Shown here: positions 26,766 to 34,291 of the stretch, piece after piece
How the letters are laid out: every line of letters starts with the position of its first letter
Numbering within the stretch: position 1 is the first letter of the stretch
Origin: Synergistales bacterium
GTDB taxonomy: Bacteria; Synergistota; Synergistia; Synergistales; JAFGMB01
Direction: 5' to 3'
DNA: 64,000 bases
NCBI GenBank assembly: GCA_963666205.1
Contig: OY762654.1
Coordinates: forward strand, 2,240,001 to 2,304,000
The notes under the pieces: model-generated
What the model was told of the DNA's origin: nothing
Databases searched by the model: none
The model's input: the letters and a program-made list of their open reading frames with translations, nothing else
Program-made: the position numbers and the translations under genes

Positions 26766-28712
26766 GTGTTGGTTCTATTGGAGAGAGAGAAGATGGATAT
26801 TACGGGTATTCAGATCGAAAATCTGAAATTAACGGACCTGATAGATCTTGAAGAGCTTCAGAAGCTTCAGGATTGTTTTGCTTTGAGCAACAATATTGCA
26901 TCCATAATCCTTGATCCTGAGGGCAAACCAATAACCAGGAGCAGTAATTTTTCCGAATTCTGTCGAATTGTCAGATCCTCATCCAGAGGAAGCGGAAATT
27001 GTAAAAAAGTGGAACAAACCCTTTCCCGTACTCAGGAGAATAATATTCCCTCTGTGATTAACTGCGATACTTTTCCTGCCATTATGGAAGGTGTCGTTCC
27101 CGTAATTGTCAAGGGTCACCATCTGGCCAGCTGGAATATCGGTCAGGTTGTTGATTCTGATATGGATGCTGGTGAAATATCGGATAAGGCAGGTTTCCTG
27201 TGCCTTGATGAGGAAGAACTTGTTTCAGCTTTTGGCAAATTAAGGAGAATGTCCCGTTCCGAGTTTGAAAGAACACTCAAGTTTCTGGAACTTCTCACCC
27301 TCCAGGTTTCCCTTCTTGCCGTCCAGAACCTTGAACAGAAGCAGCTTATCCTTGAAAGAGATAGAGCAGAAGATGCTCTGAAAAAGATACGACAGAGACT
27401 GGAGCTTGCCCTTAATAGTGCAGATCTGGCCATGTGGGACTGGAATATCAAGTCTGGAGAATTGCTGTTTAATGATCGTTGGGCTGAAATGATCGAATAC
27501 AGGCCAGAGGAGATACTACCTCATTTTGATTCCTGGCAGAAACTGGTACATCCTGAAGATGTGACAAGGGTAATGAGTTACCTTCGTTCTCATCTGAATC
27601 GGGATATCCCTTTTTTCCGGAGTGAGTACAGAATGAAGACCCGCCTTGGAAAATGGAAGTGGATCCTTGATTCTGGAAAAGTCGTAGAATGGGATGAAAA
27701 AGGGGAACCTCTTCGTGCCGTTGGTACCCATATGGATATTAGCCAACAGAAAAAAGCAGAGGGGAAACTGAACCAGAACTCTGAAGAACAGAATATCCTC
27801 CTTGATAATATTGACATACAGATCTGGTATATGAAAGACGCAGAACATTATGGCAGGGTCAATCAGGCACATGCAGACTTCCTTGGCATGGATAAAATGG
27901 AGATACAGGGTCGAAGTCTTTCCGAGATAGAAGGGAGAGACCGTTCCATCAGTGAAATCGAATCCAATAACAGGGTTATCAGGAAAAAGAGAACTGCAAA
28001 ATTTGAAGAATGGAGAAAGAACAGTTCCGGAGAGGACAGGCTTCTTTCAATTACAAGAACCCCTAAGCTGGACGAAGATGGAAACGTAGAGTATATAATC
28101 TGTACTGCCACTGATATTACGGAAAGAAGAGAATATGAGCGCAAACTGGCCTACATGGCAGTTCACGATCCTTTGACCGGATGCTATAACAGGCATTCCC
28201 TCGATCAACTTCTCAAGAAAGAAGCAGGCAGATCCAAACGCTATAAACATCCCATAGAACTGCTGATGATAGATATAAACCGGTTTAAGGAAATAAATGA
28301 CCGTTTCGGGCATCAGACAGGGGATAAAGTGCTTCAGGAAGTGGCGACCATACTGCAGAAGCAGGTCAGGGAATGTGATCTTGTCGTAAGGTATGGAGGA
28401 GATGAATTCCTTATCCTCCTGCCGGAAACGAGCGGACAGACCCAGACACTGAAAGAACGGATTATAAAAGCGGTGCATGACTGGAACAATCAGAATAATA
28501 TATTGACATTCCCTCTCAGCCTGTCCATAGGGTGTGCACACTGGGATCCAGAAAGTCCCCAGTCTATTGAGGATGTTCTTGCAGAAGCAGACAGAATGAT
28601 GTACGAGGAAAAGCGAAGGGAAAAACAGGGAGAAAGTCCTTTCATCAGGCTTGTTGACGATTCTGAAAAGATGGGAACCTACCGAAGGATAATACCTCCA
28701 TCCTCAAACTGA
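26766..28712 (+). CDS. PocR-PAS-PAS-GGDEF diguanylate cyclase (start may be ATG 26793)
   Basis: PocR LQKLQD.F...FSEFC; PAS WDWN..VHPED; HDPLTG, FKEINDRFGH, RECD I-site, GGDEF. Confidence 0.92.
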   Translation: MLVLLEREKMDITGIQIENLKLTDLIDLEELQKLQDCFALSNNIASIILDPEGKPITRSSNFSEFCRIVRSSSRGSGNCKKVEQTLSRTQENNIPSVINCDTFPAIMEGVVPVIVKGHHLASWNIGQVVDSDMDAGEISDKAGFLCLDEEELVSAFGKLRRMSRSEFERTLKFLELLTLQVSLLAVQNLEQKQLILERDRAEDALKKIRQRLELALNSADLAMWDWNIKSGELLFNDRWAEMIEYRPEEILPHFDSWQKLVHPEDVTRVMSYLRSHLNRDIPFFRSEYRMKTRLGKWKWILDSGKVVEWDEKGEPLRAVGTHMDISQQKKAEGKLNQNSEEQNILLDNIDIQIWYMKDAEHYGRVNQAHADFLGMDKMEIQGRSLSEIEGRDRSISEIESNNRVIRKKRTAKFEEWRKNSSGEDRLLSITRTPKLDEDGNVEYIICTATDITERREYERKLAYMAVHDPLTGCYNRHSLDQLLKKEAGRSKRYKHPIELLMIDINRFKEINDRFGHQTGDKVLQEVATILQKQVRECDLVVRYGGDEFLILLPETSGQTQTLKERIIKAVHDWNNQNNILTFPLSLSIGCAHWDPESPQSIEDVLAEADRMMYEEKRREKQGESPFIRLVDDSEKMGTYRRIIPPSSN

Positions 28713-28758: not shown

Positions 28759-30339
28759 CTAAGTAGAAGTTTCTTCTATTTCACCTATCATTTCCTCGAA
28801 TCCGAAAATGGTTCCATCAATATTATCGATTGTCATATCAAGAGCCCTTAATCCCTTGAATTCATATCCATCAGGAAGCCTGTTCGCATACCTTTTAACC
28901 TTGAGCAGGGCCTGGAGATAATTTCTTTCCTGGTAAGAGATTATGTCTGTTGCGAAGAGGGCGTCGGGGTGTTCTTCCAGAAAGAAAAGATTGGCCATTT
29001 CAAGATTTTCTTCAACATCCATTTCCTCATACCATATATCTGCAAGGATGGTTCTGAAACGGGCCCTGTCCTCTGCTGACACGAGCTGTCTTACAGCCCT
29101 ATCGATGGTTTTCAGGTTTTCTCTCAATTCACCGCTTATTAAATGAGGATTGAGCATTGGTAGCGAAAAGAGGGAAATATAATGAGCCTCTTCTTCTATA
29201 GAAACTTCTCTTCGAAGAAGTTTTCCGTAGGCTGGTCTAAGGGTGACCGAGGCATCTTCAGGTTCTGATCGTACAAGCTCTCTGAACACCCATCCTGTAT
29301 TGAAGCGCCTGTGTTCGAAAGGTGAATCTATGAGCCAGGTTACGTAGCCTGTATCAAAAAGTCCCTTTCGTCCTGCTCTGCCGGCCATCTGGAGAAATTC
29401 GTTCTTTGATATCGGTTTTTCGTCATGATACATTACAAGCTGGGCAAAAACAGCATACTCAGCAGGCAGGTTTACCCCAAGGGCCAATGCATTTGTCCCT
29501 ACCACCACATCAAGTATCCTTTCCCTGAAGGCAGATTCAACAAGAAGCTTCTCCTTGGGAAGCATTCCGCCATGATATATTCCAATTCCTCTAAGAAGGG
29601 GGGGCATAACTTTGGGTACATCAAGTATTCTGGCAATTTCATAAAGGCGTTTCCTTTTTTCAATTCTGACCCTTTTCCTGTATTTCGAGAGTCTTGTTGC
29701 AAGCTTTGATGCCCCTTTCTGGGAAAACAAAAAAACAAGAGCATCATGTATCCTGTCCAGTTTGAACCCTTTTTTAGTCTGAAAGACAAGTTCAGTAGCT
29801 CTTTCCCGGTTTTCATATACAGTGAAGTCTTCTCCAGTTATTCTTGAAAGATAGTTTCCGACCGAATGAGTTCCACCAAAGGTAGCGGACATAACCAGGA
29901 TCCTGGTTGCAGAGTGGGTATCCTTTATACCGTCAATATATGCCCTTGCCCTGTGGGGGTCTGTAAATATATAGTGAAATTCATCAACAACAAGTTTCTG
30001 ACCAGGCACAGATGCATATTTCAGGGTATATATTTCCTGAGTGCAGCAGAGAAGCGATGCGCCGGTATTCCTCTTGAAATCACCTGTTTCTATTCCCACG
30101 TTAAATCCCATTCTCCTGAGGTCAAGATATCGTTCATTGCTCAGGGCCTTTATTGGGGCAGTGAAGATAATCCGTTCACCGGGTGGTTCAAGTATCTCCC
30201 CTCTGGTGTTAAGGATCCCTGCCCAAAGGTAGGCTACCAGAGTTTTACCTGAACCTGTGGGAGAGGAAAGAACGGCATTTTTCCCCTTTACGTATGAAAA
30301 TGCCTTAAGCTGCCAGTCATAAAAATCGAATACCTTCAT
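28759..30339 (-). CDS. Compact Ski2-like SF2 (DExH) helicase
   Basis: SPTGSGKT, TAPIKALSNER, TGD, DEFH, SAT, YHGGMLP, GVNLPA, QMAGRAGR; SD GAGG before ATG 30339. Confidence 0.9.
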   Translation of the reverse strand: MKVFDFYDWQLKAFSYVKGKNAVLSSPTGSGKTLVAYLWAGILNTRGEILEPPGERIIFTAPIKALSNERYLDLRRMGFNVGIETGDFKRNTGASLLCCTQEIYTLKYASVPGQKLVVDEFHYIFTDPHRARAYIDGIKDTHSATRILVMSATFGGTHSVGNYLSRITGEDFTVYENRERATELVFQTKKGFKLDRIHDALVFLFSQKGASKLATRLSKYRKRVRIEKRKRLYEIARILDVPKVMPPLLRGIGIYHGGMLPKEKLLVESAFRERILDVVVGTNALALGVNLPAEYAVFAQLVMYHDEKPISKNEFLQMAGRAGRKGLFDTGYVTWLIDSPFEHRRFNTGWVFRELVRSEPEDASVTLRPAYGKLLRREVSIEEEAHYISLFSLPMLNPHLISGELRENLKTIDRAVRQLVSAEDRARFRTILADIWYEEMDVEENLEMANLFFLEEHPDALFATDIISYQERNYLQALLKVKRYANRLPDGYEFKGLRALDMTIDNIDGTIFGFEEMIGEIEETST

Positions 30340-30485
30340 TTCCTCTATTTCCCCTCTGACCGGGGACATGTAAATCCCCCCGGCATGGACTGTTTTTATC
30401 AAGTGATGCCGAACTGAATTATTATTCTGATCCTGAAAGTGAGAAGGTAACTATATTCCATAAAAGCAAATTATTCCAGACCTTC

Positions 30486-31265
30486 TCAATTGATGGAGCA
30501 GGCCGTCATCTGAAGTGCCGGGTCCTCCATAGCTGAATAGAGGGGGCCTGCATATTCCATAGGGATTTCAGACCACAGCCGGCTAGATATCCGCGGGGGT
30601 TCCCTATCTTCAAAATGGGCAACAAGGGGGTTATCCCAAAGTCCCTTTTCGAGTATATTGTCAGCAAAAGAATCTCCATACACTATCCTGCCGATATTGA
30701 TGGCCGCATTTATGTCCCTGTCGATGATCTGGCCGGAGCTGCTAAGGTAGGATTTCCCCCTTAGATGTCCCGTGCGGGATTTTCTTCTCCATCTCTTGGT
30801 GCCGGAGTATTCTATCTCTTCCAGTGCAAGGGAGTCTATCTGACTGGTAAAAGCCTCGTCCACAAGATGAACTTCTATCCTTGCAAGGGAACATTCAAAG
30901 CGAAGGGTGTTTACAAGGTGGAGGGTAATGTTAAGGTATGGGTTATCTCTCAGGGATTTATACCTTATCTTGTAGGGGTTCTTTACAGAGCGATTCCCCA
31001 GGGCTATGGACCGGATCCCGAGGCGGAGACATTCACCTATGACATAGTGACATCTTTTTAGAAGATATGTATTTATTTCCAGGAGTTCTCCATGAATTAG
31101 ATAAGGATTTTTCTTAGCCATTGCCCGGATCTTTTTCATTTTGCCTTTTTCCAGGGTATTGGGTATCAGTATTGGTTGCTGTCCTGAAAGATTTGACACT
31201 ATTGCCAGAAGATATCTTTCACCCATATCAATGGCCATTGCATTACACTGGTTTGTTTTCTGCAT
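30486..31265 (-). CDS. RuvC-only TnpB-derived protein (IS200/IS605 OrfB-like), 259 aa
   Basis: AIDMG (RuvC-I) at residue ~11, IALGN, VDEAFTSQID, YLSSSG.IIDRDINAAINI (RuvC-III); SD AAGGGGAGGG 7 nt before ATG 31265; no frameshift or stop. Confidence 0.78.
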   Translation of the reverse strand: MQKTNQCNAMAIDMGERYLLAIVSNLSGQQPILIPNTLEKGKMKKIRAMAKKNPYLIHGELLEINTYLLKRCHYVIGECLRLGIRSIALGNRSVKNPYKIRYKSLRDNPYLNITLHLVNTLRFECSLARIEVHLVDEAFTSQIDSLALEEIEYSGTKRWRRKSRTGHLRGKSYLSSSGQIIDRDINAAINIGRIVYGDSFADNILEKGLWDNPLVAHFEDREPPRISSRLWSEIPMEYAGPLYSAMEDPALQMTACSIN

Positions 31266-31314
31266 TGATAATCCCTCCCCTTGATCCGTAATAAACAGTG
31301 CCTTGTGAAAGTCG

Positions 31315-31361
31315 CAAATCAAAAGAGGGCGACAATCTCTAAACAGACTGCCGCCCTCTTT
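31315..31361 (-). terminator. Strong minus-strand intrinsic terminator
   Basis: AAAGAGGGCGGCAGTCT-gtttag-AGATTGTCGCCCTCTTT then TGATTT; fully paired, with G-U pairs, only on the minus strand. Confidence 0.8.
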
Positions 31362-31485
31362 AAAAAACCTGGTTATTGTGTGTAAAGTGTTCCTTCCCGG
31401 ATATTATTTCATTTTTCATGATCATTTACACTATCCACTCCTTTCTGGTTGTGAAGTGGAATGATACAAGCTCATTGTTGAACTT
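31315..31485 (-). ncRNA. Candidate ~170-nt structured RNA or leader (contains a 21-codon ORF at 31360-31425)
   Basis: Bounded by a promoter and a terminator; stems TCCACTTC/GGAGTGGA and GTGTAAA/TTTACAC. Confidence 0.5.
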
Positions 31486-31491
31486 ACTCTA

Positions 31492-31520
31492 AATATAGTG
31501 TTAAAAAAGGAAAGAGTCAA
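31492..31520 (-). promoter_or_regulatory. Sigma70 promoter
   Basis: TTGACT-17 nt-TATATT on the minus strand. Confidence 0.7.
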
Positions 31521-31870
31521 GGATGAACACACTAACTGTAACCTATTTGTTACTGATGGATTCACTGATATTGATGATATATATGGAAATAATAGATACT
31601 TATAGGGATAGTATAAATATGCTGGATTAGAATGTAAGACAGGTATGTGGAGAATCAGAAATGGAGATGAGAGTGGTGGATGCTCTTGATTCAACCCCCT
31701 GGTATAGTCATGTCCATGGGTATGTTTCTCGCTGCAACATCCGGTGTTTTTGTTACCATATCTGTAAGCCGGATGTTCTGCGTGAGAAAATTTATATGAT
31801 TGGATTTATTATTCCAGTAAAATGACCATATGAAATCCGGATCGTAATTTTCTGAGAAGAAGGTGCTTGA

Positions 31871-33088
31871 ATGAAATTATTAGAAACGATCAGGCAGGAA
31901 GCTGAATCTCTTCAGGATCAACTTATATCCTGGAGAAGGGATCTGCATCAGATACCCGAAGTTGAAATGGGAACTGTCAATACAGAGGATTATATTTGCA
32001 GTAAACTTGATGAAATGGGTATACCGTACAGAAAAAACGTTGGAGAACATGGCGTGGTAGCCCTTCTTGAGGGTGCCCGACCGGGGAAGGTTTTTGCATT
32101 CCGTGCAGATTGTGATGGATTGCCCATCAGGGAAGAAACGGATCTTCCCTATGCTTCTAAAAACGGTTGTATGCATGCCTGCGGGCATGATGTCCATACG
32201 GCAATGGCTCTGGGCATGGCGAAAATCCTTTCTTCACACAAGGAAGATCTATGTGGGGCTGTCAAGTTCATTTTTCAGCCTGGAGAAGAAGGATGCAAGG
32301 AAGGCCCGGGAGGAGCCAAACGGATGCTGGATGATGGAGTCCTTGAGGATCCTTCTGTCGATGCCATACTTGCGTTACATACAGGTTCAATATGGAAAGA
32401 AAGTTTCCAGCCTGGTGATATAGGTTTTCATTATGGGGGTATCATGGCCTGTATGGACAGGTTCGAGATCCTTGTAAGGGGTAGGGGGAGCCATGGTGCT
32501 TACCCGCATGGTTCAGTCGATCCCATAAGTATAGCCACGCAGATAATTTCTGAACTTCAGACCATAGTCAGCAGGGAGATAAATCCTGTAGAACCTGCAG
32601 TCGTCAGTATTGGAGAGATACATGCAGGGACCGCTTTCAACATAATTCCTGAAGAGTGCAGGATCTCCGGAACTGTCAGGGCCCTTAATCAGGGAACAAG
32701 GGAGTTCATCGCCAGGAGGATTGAGGAGATCTCAAATTCAGTTGCAGAGGGTATGAGAGGAAAAATCCAGTTCAAGTATGGCTGGGAAGGGCCTCCGCCT
32801 GTGGTGAATGATGCGGATTTCACAGAGGAATTCAGACAGGTGGCTTCCCGAGTTCTGGGGGAGGATAGAGTGAAGGAAATAAAACATCCATCCATGGGCG
32901 GTGAAGATATAGCCTTTTTCCTTGAGAAAGTTCCTGGAACTTTTGCATTTCACCCCAGCTGCAATAAGGAAAAAGGACAGATATATCCGCATCACAATCC
33001 CAGGTTCATGATAGATGAGGATGTGCTCTGGGTGGGTACTGCCGTTTCTGCTGCAATGGCAGTCGAATGGCTCAAAAAACACTCATAA
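31871..33088 (+). CDS. M20D family amidohydrolase
   Basis: RRDLHQIPE, RADCD.LP, MHACGHD.H, FQPGEE, GEDIAF, HHNP.F. Confidence 0.93.
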   Translation: MKLLETIRQEAESLQDQLISWRRDLHQIPEVEMGTVNTEDYICSKLDEMGIPYRKNVGEHGVVALLEGARPGKVFAFRADCDGLPIREETDLPYASKNGCMHACGHDVHTAMALGMAKILSSHKEDLCGAVKFIFQPGEEGCKEGPGGAKRMLDDGVLEDPSVDAILALHTGSIWKESFQPGDIGFHYGGIMACMDRFEILVRGRGSHGAYPHGSVDPISIATQIISELQTIVSREINPVEPAVVSIGEIHAGTAFNIIPEECRISGTVRALNQGTREFIARRIEEISNSVAEGMRGKIQFKYGWEGPPPVVNDADFTEEFRQVASRVLGEDRVKEIKHPSMGGEDIAFFLEKVPGTFAFHPSCNKEKGQIYPHHNPRFMIDEDVLWVGTAVSAAMAVEWLKKHS

Positions 33089-33109
33089 TATCCCCTGGGA
33101 GGAGGTCCA

Positions 33110-34291
33110 GTGATAATGAAAAACGAAGCAAAGGAAATACTGGATCAGGTAATCGAATGGAGAAGACACTTCCATAAGAATCCTGAGATCGGCCTTGAAA
33201 CTGTAAAGACTGAAGCCTATATCGTGGATGAATTGAAAAAGATGAATATAGATGATATAAGGCAGGGAATAGGGGGACATGGGGTAAGAGCGGTTATTTC
33301 TGGGGGGCTCCCCGGAAAGAATCTTGCCCTCAGGGCTGACTGTGATGCACTTCCAATAAGAGAGGAGACCGGCCTGTCTTTTGCCTCTAATAACGGTAAT
33401 ATGCATGCATGCGGACATGATGCCCACTCTGCAATGTTACTGGGAACTGCCAGGCTTTTGAGCAGTCGAAAAGATCAATTAAAGGGAAAGGTTATCCTGA
33501 TCTTTCAGCCTGCAGAAGAACAGGTTATTGGAGCAAAGGCCATGATAGATGACGGCCTTCTTGAAGGCCTTGAAATAGATGAGATAATTGGTGTCCATAC
33601 GGGATTATTGTGGAAGGAATTTCAGCCAGGTGAGCTCGGGATAAAATACGGAAGCATGATGGCTTCCCTGGACAGATTCAAAATTACCCTGAAGGGCAAA
33701 GGTGGTCATGGTGCCATACCACACATGACAGTGGATCCCATAAGTATGGCAGGGCAACTTATTGTGAAGCTGCAAACCATAGTCAGCAGGGAAAAAGATC
33801 CTTTAAAAGGTGCTGTTATGTCCATAGGCAGTATCCAGGGAGGAACTGCATTCAACATCATTCCGGGAGAATGTATTCTTGAAGGTACCGTAAGAACCCT
33901 TGATCCCGAAACAAGGATTCTTATGGAAGAGCGAATAACTGAAATTTCGAAAGCCACTGCGTCCAGTATGAGGGGTGAGGTTGATATAGAATATATCCCT
34001 GGTCCGCCTCCTCTGATCAATGATACACAGGTACTGCAAAGAGTGCAGACCGTGGCAGAGAATATTCTCGGGAAAGAGAAAGTCAGGGAAATACAGGAAC
34101 CTTCATTAGGCAGTGAAGATTTTGCGTATTTCCTCGAAAAAGTGCCAGGGGCATTTATTTTCCATTCCGGATGCAATGCTGCAAAAGGACAGACCTATCC
34201 TCATCACAACTCAAGATTTGATATTGATGAGGAAACCCTATGGGTCGGACCAGCCCTTTTTGCGGGATATGCTCTTACCTGGCAAGAATAG
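33110..34291 (+). CDS. M20D family amidohydrolase (tandem paralogue)
   Basis: RRHFHKNPE, MHACGHDAH, FQPAEE, SEDFAY, HHNSRF. Confidence 0.93.
   Translation: MIMKNEAKEILDQVIEWRRHFHKNPEIGLETVKTEAYIVDELKKMNIDDIRQGIGGHGVRAVISGGLPGKNLALRADCDALPIREETGLSFASNNGNMHACGHDAHSAMLLGTARLLSSRKDQLKGKVILIFQPAEEQVIGAKAMIDDGLLEGLEIDEIIGVHTGLLWKEFQPGELGIKYGSMMASLDRFKITLKGKGGHGAIPHMTVDPISMAGQLIVKLQTIVSREKDPLKGAVMSIGSIQGGTAFNIIPGECILEGTVRTLDPETRILMEERITEISKATASSMRGEVDIEYIPGPPPLINDTQVLQRVQTVAENILGKEKVREIQEPSLGSEDFAYFLEKVPGAFIFHSGCNAAKGQTYPHHNSRFDIDEETLWVGPALFAGYALTWQE

Follow-up and report, generated by a model that had tools for sequence, protein, structure and literature searches.

A conserved RuvC-only derivative of TnpB and its hairpin-bearing leader in Synergistota

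What a bare RuvC lobe of a TnpB or Cas12 protein can do alone is the question raised by a locus in the genome of a Synergistales bacterium. The stretch of DNA analysed, referred to throughout as the window, is 64,000 nucleotides (nt) in length (contig OY762654.1 of assembly GCA_963666205.1, positions 2,240,001 to 2,304,000) and derives from a genome, G000, which consists of a single 2.95-Mb contig and belongs to the phylum Synergistota. A gene on the minus strand of the window, at 30486..31265, encodes a protein of 259 amino acids (aa) which is the RuvC/TNB nuclease lobe of TnpB/Cas12f and nothing else. We hold with high confidence that this gene is a RuvC-only, selected and immobile TnpB derivative preceded by a conserved leader. 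The complete chain of interpretation, in which the product would be a domesticated RuvC nuclease that needs no guide, probably acts as a symmetric dimer and cuts single-stranded or branched DNA, its synthesis being throttled by a terminator and released by leader translation, is our preferred reading, and one for which we judge the case to be evenly balanced.

The RuvC-only protein and its family

The open reading frame (ORF) is intact from an ATG which is preceded, at a distance of 7 nt, by the strong Shine-Dalgarno (SD) sequence AAGGGGAGGG (31273..31282, minus strand), as had been stated in an initial annotation made from the DNA letters and a list of reading frames. The GGAGG of this SD is invariant in 9/9 aligned loci. 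A TTG located 57 nt above the ATG would extend the ORF to 31322, giving 278 aa; the 259-aa form is taken as the real gene because the equivalent Met is the start in 13/13 homologues recovered by a word-index search and because the alternative TTG falls within the conserved terminator hairpin described below. All of the motifs claimed in the initial annotation are present, AIDMG (RuvC-I) at residues 11-15, IALGN at 87-91, VDEAFTSQID at 135-144 and IIDRDINAAINI at 180-191, and the D-E-D set that it considered retained corresponds to the catalytic residues D13, E137 and D184, with Gly90 occupying the canonical RuvC-II position. In place of the zinc finger stands a basic loop (~150-175) with the conserved sequence RWRRKSRxGHLRGK, there being no Cys between E137 and D184. 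The C-terminal tail (215-259) is poorly conserved, is of low confidence in the structural model and ends S-I-N.

Profile and structure comparisons, which had been proposed as checks on the initial annotation, place the protein with TnpB and Cas12f. Pfam PF07282 (Cas12f1-like_TNB) is matched at E 5e-7 with 30.2 bits, above the cut-off of 26.3, Pfam detecting the TNB insert only, and the NCBIfam guided_TnpB profile (NF040570) is matched over its last 60 positions only, at E 5e-8 and 32.6 bits, below its 100-bit cut-off. Neither PF01385 (OrfB_IS605) nor PF02075 (RuvC resolvase) is matched by the 259-aa protein in Pfam. A profile of the family, run against a library of 1.84 billion representative proteins, matched 817 proteins at E <= 1e-3 and 11 at E <= 1e-30. 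Down to approximately E 1e-25 the matches are short or C-extended proteins in which RuvC opens the chain or begins close to its N terminus, the top three being P0003, P0012 and P0014; ordinary TnpBs of 390-450 aa appear from E 1e-17 down, their residues ~190-420 corresponding to profile positions ~5-215. RuvC-I starts at residue 11 where full-length relatives align from residue ~190, and the WED/REC lobe is absent, confirming the proposed loss of the entire N-terminal recognition lobe. The accompanying claim of a shortened bridge-helix/REC2 region may hold, in that the alignment shows the whole stretch from RuvC-I to RuvC-II to be ~20 residues shorter than in full-length relatives. An AlphaFold model of the protein, built from a 16-row alignment (predicted local distance difference test (pLDDT) 75.4, predicted template modelling score (pTM) 0.73), matches Cas12f, Fanzor2 and TnpB in Foldseek with a best E of 3.8e-7, and scores only weakly there against RuvC (E 1.6e-3 to 8e-3). 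Sequence searches of the PDB gave one chance-level match with the single protein and none at E <= 0.01 with the family profile.

D13, E137 and D184 are invariant in 16 family sequences, as is the DRDINAAINIGR block, over an identity range of 38-95%. In a second alignment of 22 sequences, comprising the short family and its nearest full-length relatives, G90, E137 and D184 are invariant (22/22) and D13 is absent from one sequence only, P0016, whose called start falls after RuvC-I. E137 belongs to a (D/E)ExxTS motif, and the same alternative Glu together with Gly at RuvC-II is found in the closest full-length TnpBs, as the initial annotation had anticipated; these relatives are likewise without a CxxC zinc finger and carry the TSxxDxLxLE motif. 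This arrangement fits clade RIIr-5 (Altae-Tran et al. 2023) as far as the clade is described in the main text of PMC10691335, where Gly is given at RuvC-II and the alternative Glu is inferred from AlphaFold models; the name is used here for a match to that published description only and not for a placement on its tree. We conclude that the gene is a TnpB derivative of the rearranged-glutamate, zinc-finger-less kind which has lost its whole N-terminal WED/REC lobe and in which the TNB insert is degenerate.

The lost lobe was not found elsewhere in the genome. The 600 nt upstream of the gene are occupied by a promoter, a leader and a terminator and contain no N-lobe remnant; this finding, with the absence of tnpA from the locus, agrees with the initial annotation. 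PF01385 has 0 matches in the whole genome and PF12323 none above cut-off, and the N lobes of nine full-length relatives searched against the genome gave only E > 0.1. A split TnpB with its N lobe encoded elsewhere was therefore rejected, no N-lobe gene being found in the genome by any of these searches. The gene is single-copy in G000, where no further PF07282 match above cut-off is present. Three Y1_Tnp matches occur in the genome, all at least 150 kb away and outside the window. The corresponding Y1-transposase-domain genes (G000:C1 1557052-1557375, 1642814-1643095 and 2458242-2458547; open frames of 332, 308 and 184 aa), in a genome without canonical TnpB, may be IS200-like or associated with repetitive extragenic palindromes (REP).

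Homologues of the gene are uniform in length, as the domestication proposal would have it: the 13 proteins recovered by word-index search are all 254-274 aa (13/13), at 46-95% identity. The short family as a whole comprises proteins of 241-278 aa, or C-extended forms of 369-465 aa, with an identity spread of 38-95%. A 62-row tree was obtained by a quick search and is unrooted, its full-length rows having been drawn from P0024-P0079 by length (330-520 aa). In it a branch with a Shimodaira-Hasegawa-like approximate likelihood ratio (SH-aLRT) support of 100 separates all 21 short-family rows from the others, and on this sequence tree the short family has a single origin. Matches are present in 11 of 61 genomes of relatives, eight of which belong to the family (G000-G003 in taxonomic family f1 and four in genus g8), the others being weak matches to ordinary TnpB; in a sample of the phylum, the family occurs in 12/268 Synergistota genomes and 7/76 genera.

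In genus g8 the proteins (L005/L020 in G042, L008/L021 in G027, L022, L025, L029 and L051) are 443-444 aa and carry a mostly charged C-terminal extension of ~200 aa in which no Pfam domain was detected. The extensions of two other long relatives, P0021 (465 aa) and P0022 (369 aa), look different from that of g8. Ordinary full-length TnpB-like frames of 325-437 aa, 24-26% identical to the query, are found outside the carrier genera (L009-L012; G024, G015 and G032; genus g5), which indicates that mobile TnpBs circulate in the phylum. The ESM Atlas contains other clusters of 239-269-aa TnpB-related proteins, one of them half viral; short TnpB derivatives may therefore be more widespread than the family described here.

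The ratio of nonsynonymous to synonymous substitution rates (dN/dS, Nei-Gojobori) is 0.083 for the window gene against its G001 orthologue (dS 0.26), 0.145-0.209 for five pairs within g8 and 0.126 for G090 against G100, three deeper f1 pairs being saturated at synonymous sites. Judged from these sequence comparisons, in which the proposed dN/dS below 1 is found throughout, the gene is under purifying selection. The family occurs in at least five unrelated, transposase-free chromosomal contexts. In the three f1 genera the gene sits between PolX and a Hel308-like helicase, so that the synteny looked for with the initial annotation holds within f1; in g8 it lies between a ClC channel and an EamA transporter, in G090 after ATPase, SulP and CNNM genes, in G185 after MalT-like, glyoxalase and PALP genes, and in G100 between flanks without a Pfam match. 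The insertion site is fixed in the three f1 genera and likewise within g8. No transposase, integrase or defence gene stands beside the gene in the contexts examined, the flanks being transporter and metabolic genes. In G004, a sister of the carrier G002, the PolX-helicase gap is ~250 nt and lacks the gene, the same gap being ~1450 nt in G002; exact insertion boundaries were sought from this pair and abandoned, the DNA being too diverged (65-70% identity). The proposal of domestication rather than decay is upheld by a single-copy, monophyletic gene in transposase-free contexts with dN/dS of 0.08-0.21, and we conclude that it is an immobilised, host-retained TnpB descendant and not a decaying copy.

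The leader, its small reading frame and its hairpin

Three features lay beyond the view of the initial annotation: the C-extended forms in another genus described above, a predicted symmetric homodimer considered below, and a conserved leader with a small ORF and a terminator. The leader was examined in 13 loci (the window, G001-3, G042, G027, G009, G055, L029, G069, G090, G100 and G185), and the same upstream layout is observed in 13/13: first a promoter, then a leader in which a small ORF with its own SD is found, and finally a terminator hairpin shortly ahead of the SD of the gene. In the window the promoter is of the sigma-70 type (31492..31520, minus strand), with TTGACT at 31520-31515 and TATATT at 31497-31492 separated by 17 nt, and is the top site of a promoter scan, with 10/12 matches. 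Its -35 and -10 boxes and their flanking bases are invariant in four f1 genomes, and analogous promoters occur at the same distance in the g8, G090, G100 and G185 loci.

The small ORF of the window leader, MIMKNEIISGKEHFTHNNQVF (31360..31443, minus strand), has the SD AAGGAG at 31438-31443, an ATG at 31425 and 21 codons, and its TAA, ending at 31360, is three bases ahead of the core terminator stem and within the extended stem. Small ORFs of 21-49 codons, SD-led and reaching the hairpin, are present in 13/13 leaders, and their peptide sequences are not conserved. The f1 small ORF comes to its stop at the foot of the stem; that of g8, G090 and G100 crosses the hairpin, its stop lying at the start codon of the gene or immediately ahead of it, and overlaps the gene start in 4/6 g8-type leaders as well as in G090 and G100. 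In G185 the small ORF is fused in frame to the gene, no other start codon being available there. The hairpin of that locus (L049, 6799-7671) is translated as part of an N-terminal extension of ~45 aa. The public call of P0016, a relative of the G185 form, is probably too short, since it begins only at the Met of AIDMG, past RuvC-I.

The hairpin of the window resembles an intrinsic terminator (31321..31361, minus strand), with a core stem GGGCGGCAGUCU / AGAUUGUCGCCC at 31327-31356, which is lengthened by an A/U-rich foot, and a U-tract at 31321-31326. The minimum free energy fold of the window leader has z = -4.16, with 0/200 shuffles folding as well, and the hairpin was not listed by a simple terminator scan of the window. 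Across loci the leader is ~110-170 nt, and the GC-rich hairpin and its U's end 10-55 nt before the SD of the gene; in g8 there is additional pairing between that SD and the bases that border the hairpin. In an alignment of the 13 hairpins 94.7% of cells pair, a count lowered by the G100 row lying three columns off in the 5' arm, and 7/12 pairs are changed on both sides. None of 500 shuffles (0/500) reaches any of five covariation measures, and slid controls are 41-63% paired. The stem foot is GGCGGCA in 11/13 loci despite protein identity down to 41%, and the upper stem covaries freely. These sequence features are consistent with the leader being a translated-leader attenuator with translational coupling, in which both termination and coupling are inferred. 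Elsewhere in G000, a loose GG(C/T)GGCAG...CTGCCGCC pattern found three unrelated hairpins (G000:C1 513496-513525, 1969126-1969152 and 1875015-1875041), one a perfect 30-nt palindrome and two near-identical copies without a following T-tract; the pattern missed the stem of the window itself, which has G-U pairs.

In four metatranscriptome runs from one study, Logan contigs 90-99% alike and of depth 2-10 were found over part of the helicase and over part of the gene as far as 31333; DNA carry-over into these libraries is possible. One of these RNA-library contigs runs from the 3' end of the gene across the spacer and 27 nt into the helicase ORF. No RNA-library contig falls on 31375-31900, which at this depth speaks neither for the absence of a leader RNA nor for a transcript end, and an adapter-bearing contig end at 31311 is a single observation.

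A predicted homodimer and candidate functions

Two copies of the protein, co-folded with the family alignment, give an interface score (ipSAE) of 0.80 (0.80, 0.80 and 0.79 in three runs), the best of three controls giving 0.01. The mark for this score is reached by 20/30 proteins solved as one-chain pairs and by 1/23 solved as single chains, counts which hold roughly since a custom alignment was used. Between runs, at least 54% of contacts are shared, and the partner pLDDT is at least 75. The predicted interface is symmetric (96:96, 119:119, 65:65) and is formed by helices 43-81 and segment 91-134, including N96, P97, L105, N112, R122, F123 and L127, which are invariant in the short family and not in its full-length relatives. 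From these models the protein is probably a symmetric homodimer. The dimer of Cas12f is asymmetric and is formed through the N-terminal lobe; as this lobe is missing here, it seems unlikely that the model merely recalls the Cas12f complex.

Combined, these observations suggest a mechanism in which the protein would need no guide RNA and would act as a symmetric homodimer carrying two RuvC sites. It would be a Mg-dependent endonuclease acting on single-stranded or branched DNA, less likely on RNA, through D13, E137 and D184, and the conserved Arg/Lys-rich loop that replaces the zinc finger would hold the substrate. Transcription from the strong promoter would mostly halt at the hairpin, presumably because an unregulated RuvC lobe would be harmful, and the gene would be expressed only when the hairpin is covered or opened by a ribosome at work on the small leader ORF. 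As to its role in the cell, repair-type processing or a stress or defence function may be considered. A bolder form of this proposal, which we put forward tentatively and consider possible rather than probable, is that a TnpB here ran the path from RuvC to guided nuclease backwards: the RNA lobe would have been lost, a new symmetric interface (NP(Y/F)/SLRxNP/RF) acquired, and the product would be a guide-free, two-site, resolvase-like DNA endonuclease whose synthesis is licensed by translation of the leader ORF through the hairpin.

Several points weigh against the proposal of a leader-licensed, guide-free nuclease. The structural model is of middling confidence (pLDDT 75), with loop 154-165 and the tail from residue 224 below 50, and the dimer is a matter of model confidence throughout. 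The compensating role of the alternative Glu comes, in the main text of PMC10691335, from structure predictions and not from an assay of the clade. The leader offers no identified alternative antiterminator pairing, RNAalifold finding no conserved leader helix beyond the terminator, and the frequency at which mononucleotide shuffles of each leader yield a hairpin-reaching, SD-led small ORF (0.07-0.51) comes from simple shuffles of related sequences, so that the joint odds are indicative only. The leader RNA could be recognised sequence-specifically at its conserved GGCGGCA foot, a possibility that would better fit an RNA binder. The contexts of the gene have no gene in common and therefore no pathway can be inferred from them. 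The family is patchy and is absent from the empty site of G004 though its sister G002 carries the gene; the gene is therefore dispensable and could still move, if rarely. Finally, the genome keeps its own canonical RuvC (G000:C1:99559-99999), so that the protein would be an addition and not a substitute. Replacement of canonical RuvC by the TnpB derivative was indeed rejected, canonical RuvC being kept in 59/61 relatives, G000 and all searched carriers included.

Four other explanations were weighed. In the first, an active nuclease would serve as a toxin, or as a defence or stress effector, and would be released when leader translation changes, for instance during phage infection or stress. 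Such a role would suit a nuclease gene that appears tightly gated by terminator and coupling, as well as its patchy, dispensable distribution, and toxin roles are proposed for some catalytically intact exapted TnpBs in the main text of PMC10691335. No antitoxin-like partner, defence island or mobile-element gene, however, is present in the contexts examined; PADLOC returned only weak Cas12f-fragment matches for the protein (E 0.002-0.003) and generic superfamily 2 (SF2) helicase matches for the helicase; and the phage and plasmid collections held no relative above 30% identity, only full-length TnpBs (26-30%) in 5 and 3 records, respectively. We regard this explanation as unlikely, if still worth keeping in mind.

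In the second, the protein would bind nucleic acid without cutting it, for example as an autoregulator or antiterminator which reads the leader hairpin through its Arg-rich loop, the acidic residues being kept for metal binding or structure. The conserved basic loop in the place of the zinc finger and the conserved sequence of the hairpin foot would be explained in this way, and other exapted TnpBs, as described in the main text of PMC10691335 and in 10.1101/2023.11.30.569447, are regulators. All of the regulatory exaptations described have lost their catalytic residues, whereas D13, E137, D184 and the DRDINAAINIGR block are invariant here, and slow evolution is to be expected of the strong GC pairs in a terminator foot even if no protein reads them; together these points make a non-cutting binder distinctly unlikely.

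The third explanation retains RNA guidance: an abundant short transcript running from the conserved promoter to the hairpin, or an RNA or protein encoded elsewhere, would replace WED/REC, and the complex would cut or bind a complementary target. Guide RNAs of the TnpB/IscB world are encoded beside the protein gene, a promoter-to-terminator unit of ~110-170 nt is present in 13/13 loci and all five contexts, and the GGCGGCA foot is near-constant where the proteins are only 41-46% identical. Yet beyond the hairpin neither sequence nor structure of the leader is conserved between genera, every leader contains an SD-led ORF, and no N-lobe gene was found elsewhere in the genome. The leader as a guide was rejected, no complementary genomic site being found: its best other match in the genome is 15 nt (E 0.49). 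Nor was a structured or conserved element detected downstream, at the usual place of an omega RNA: the gene's 3' end with its spacer has no more structure than expected (z = -0.96), the spacer, of 83 nt or slightly more, shows no conservation between genera, and Rfam gave only two chance-level matches (E 0.4-0.8). A surviving RNA-guided complex is thus very unlikely. The fourth, a decaying, 5'-truncated insertion sequence (IS) remnant left open by chance, might be suggested by the annotation of P0003 as 'transposase' in one source and by the many short TnpB fragments in databases, but can practically be set aside given the low dN/dS, the conserved length, start and SD, a monophyly extending over several Synergistota families, the conserved regulatory DNA, coverage by RNA-library contigs (with the carry-over noted above) and an identity spread which excludes orthologues being recent copies of one element.

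Neighbouring genes and comparison with known systems

The gene is followed by a co-oriented Hel308/Ski2-like SF2 helicase (28759..30402, minus strand), 547 aa as the longest ORF, orthologue alignments starting at residues 11-42. It matches Pfam DEAD and Helicase_C and, in part, the NCBIfam Hel308 model (95 bits against a cut-off of 1200), being shorter than Hel308 models. The helicase adjoins the gene in G001, G002 and G003, is a neighbour only in f1, and lies on another contig in the gene-carrying g8 genomes; it is single-copy and is found in 48/61 Synergistales relatives at 48-95% identity. It belongs to a conserved, unnamed helicase family of Synergistales which lies beside PolX in f1. Considered as a general functional partner, it was rejected on this distribution, its presence in 48/61 relatives marking it as a housekeeping neighbour and not a dedicated partner. 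Beside the helicase, and kept there in f1, is a gene of 648 aa (26766-28712, plus strand) combining a PocR sensory domain, PAS domains and a GGDEF diguanylate cyclase. On the other side, two tandem M20-family peptidase/amidohydrolase genes (31871-34291, plus strand; 405 and 393 aa) lie between the leader promoter and PolX; they are absent from this place in G001 and G002, where PolX follows directly, which points to a local insertion in the window lineage.

The leader shares with attenuators and coupled upstream ORFs of the trp type a promoter, an SD-led short ORF and a GC-rich hairpin with a U-tract before the SD of the gene, and differs from trp-type leaders in that no regulatory codon run, conserved peptide or alternative antiterminator helix was identified. 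A terminator hairpin also occurs in the left end of IS200. The conserved leader is also of interest in its own right, as a compact and testable case, in a phylum that has received little study, in which expression of a potentially toxic gene would be licensed by translation.

Like the RuvC Holliday-junction resolvase, the protein has an RNase H-like fold, and the symmetric homodimer, two acidic sites and guide-free action of the resolvase are those proposed here; it differs in not being a member of PF02075, in matching RuvC weakly in Foldseek and in its descent from TnpB. Cas12f is a protein of 400-530 aa with WED/REC, a zinc finger and a CRISPR RNA (crRNA)/tracrRNA pair, and the dimer predicted here would differ from that of Cas12f in being symmetric and formed via the RuvC helices.

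The closest relatives are the rearranged-RuvC-II TnpBs, of the kind described as RIIr-5 in the main text of PMC10691335. They supply the best full-length matches of the family profile and, in the 22-sequence alignment, share with the family the RuvC fold, Gly at the canonical Glu, the Glu of (D/E)ExxTS, TSxxDxLxLE and the lack of a CxxC zinc finger. The family differs from them in lacking ~190 N-terminal residues (WED/REC), in having DRDxN rather than NADxN at RuvC-III, and in the NP(Y/F) and SLR(D/E)NP motifs, which are specific to the family. In contrast to IS-borne TnpB, the gene is single-copy and without IS ends or a transposase, and no omega RNA was found.

No description of an N-lobe-less, catalytically intact and conserved TnpB family was found by full-text searches of the literature, though the supplementary tables of PMC10691335 could list such a clade; 'Synergist' has 0 occurrences in the main text of that paper. 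The census reported there used two profiles, one of which, as its main text describes them, includes the N-terminal domain, and proteins of this kind may have been under-sampled. TnpB exaptation is itself already known; the N-lobe-less, catalytically intact family appears to be new. With TldR and other exapted TnpBs it shares chromosomal fixation of a TnpB descendant, the lack of a transposase and selection. TldRs are full-length or C-truncated, have lost their catalytic residues and keep a 3' guide RNA, according to the main text of PMC10691335. The present family has lost the N lobe, keeps the catalytic set and has no guide that could be found; since its catalytic residues are intact the protein is not a TldR, a distinction which the initial annotation had drawn correctly. 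To our knowledge, TnpB exaptations either retain the complete RNA-guided scaffold, as in Cas12, TldR and sigma-associated dCas12f, or inactivate the catalytic site. The present family has gone the other way, having discarded the lobe which holds the guide and kept the active site under strong selection. If it does act as a guide-free dimeric nuclease, RNA guidance would be evolutionarily reversible, and a minimal RuvC module of ~26 kDa would become available for structural and engineering work.

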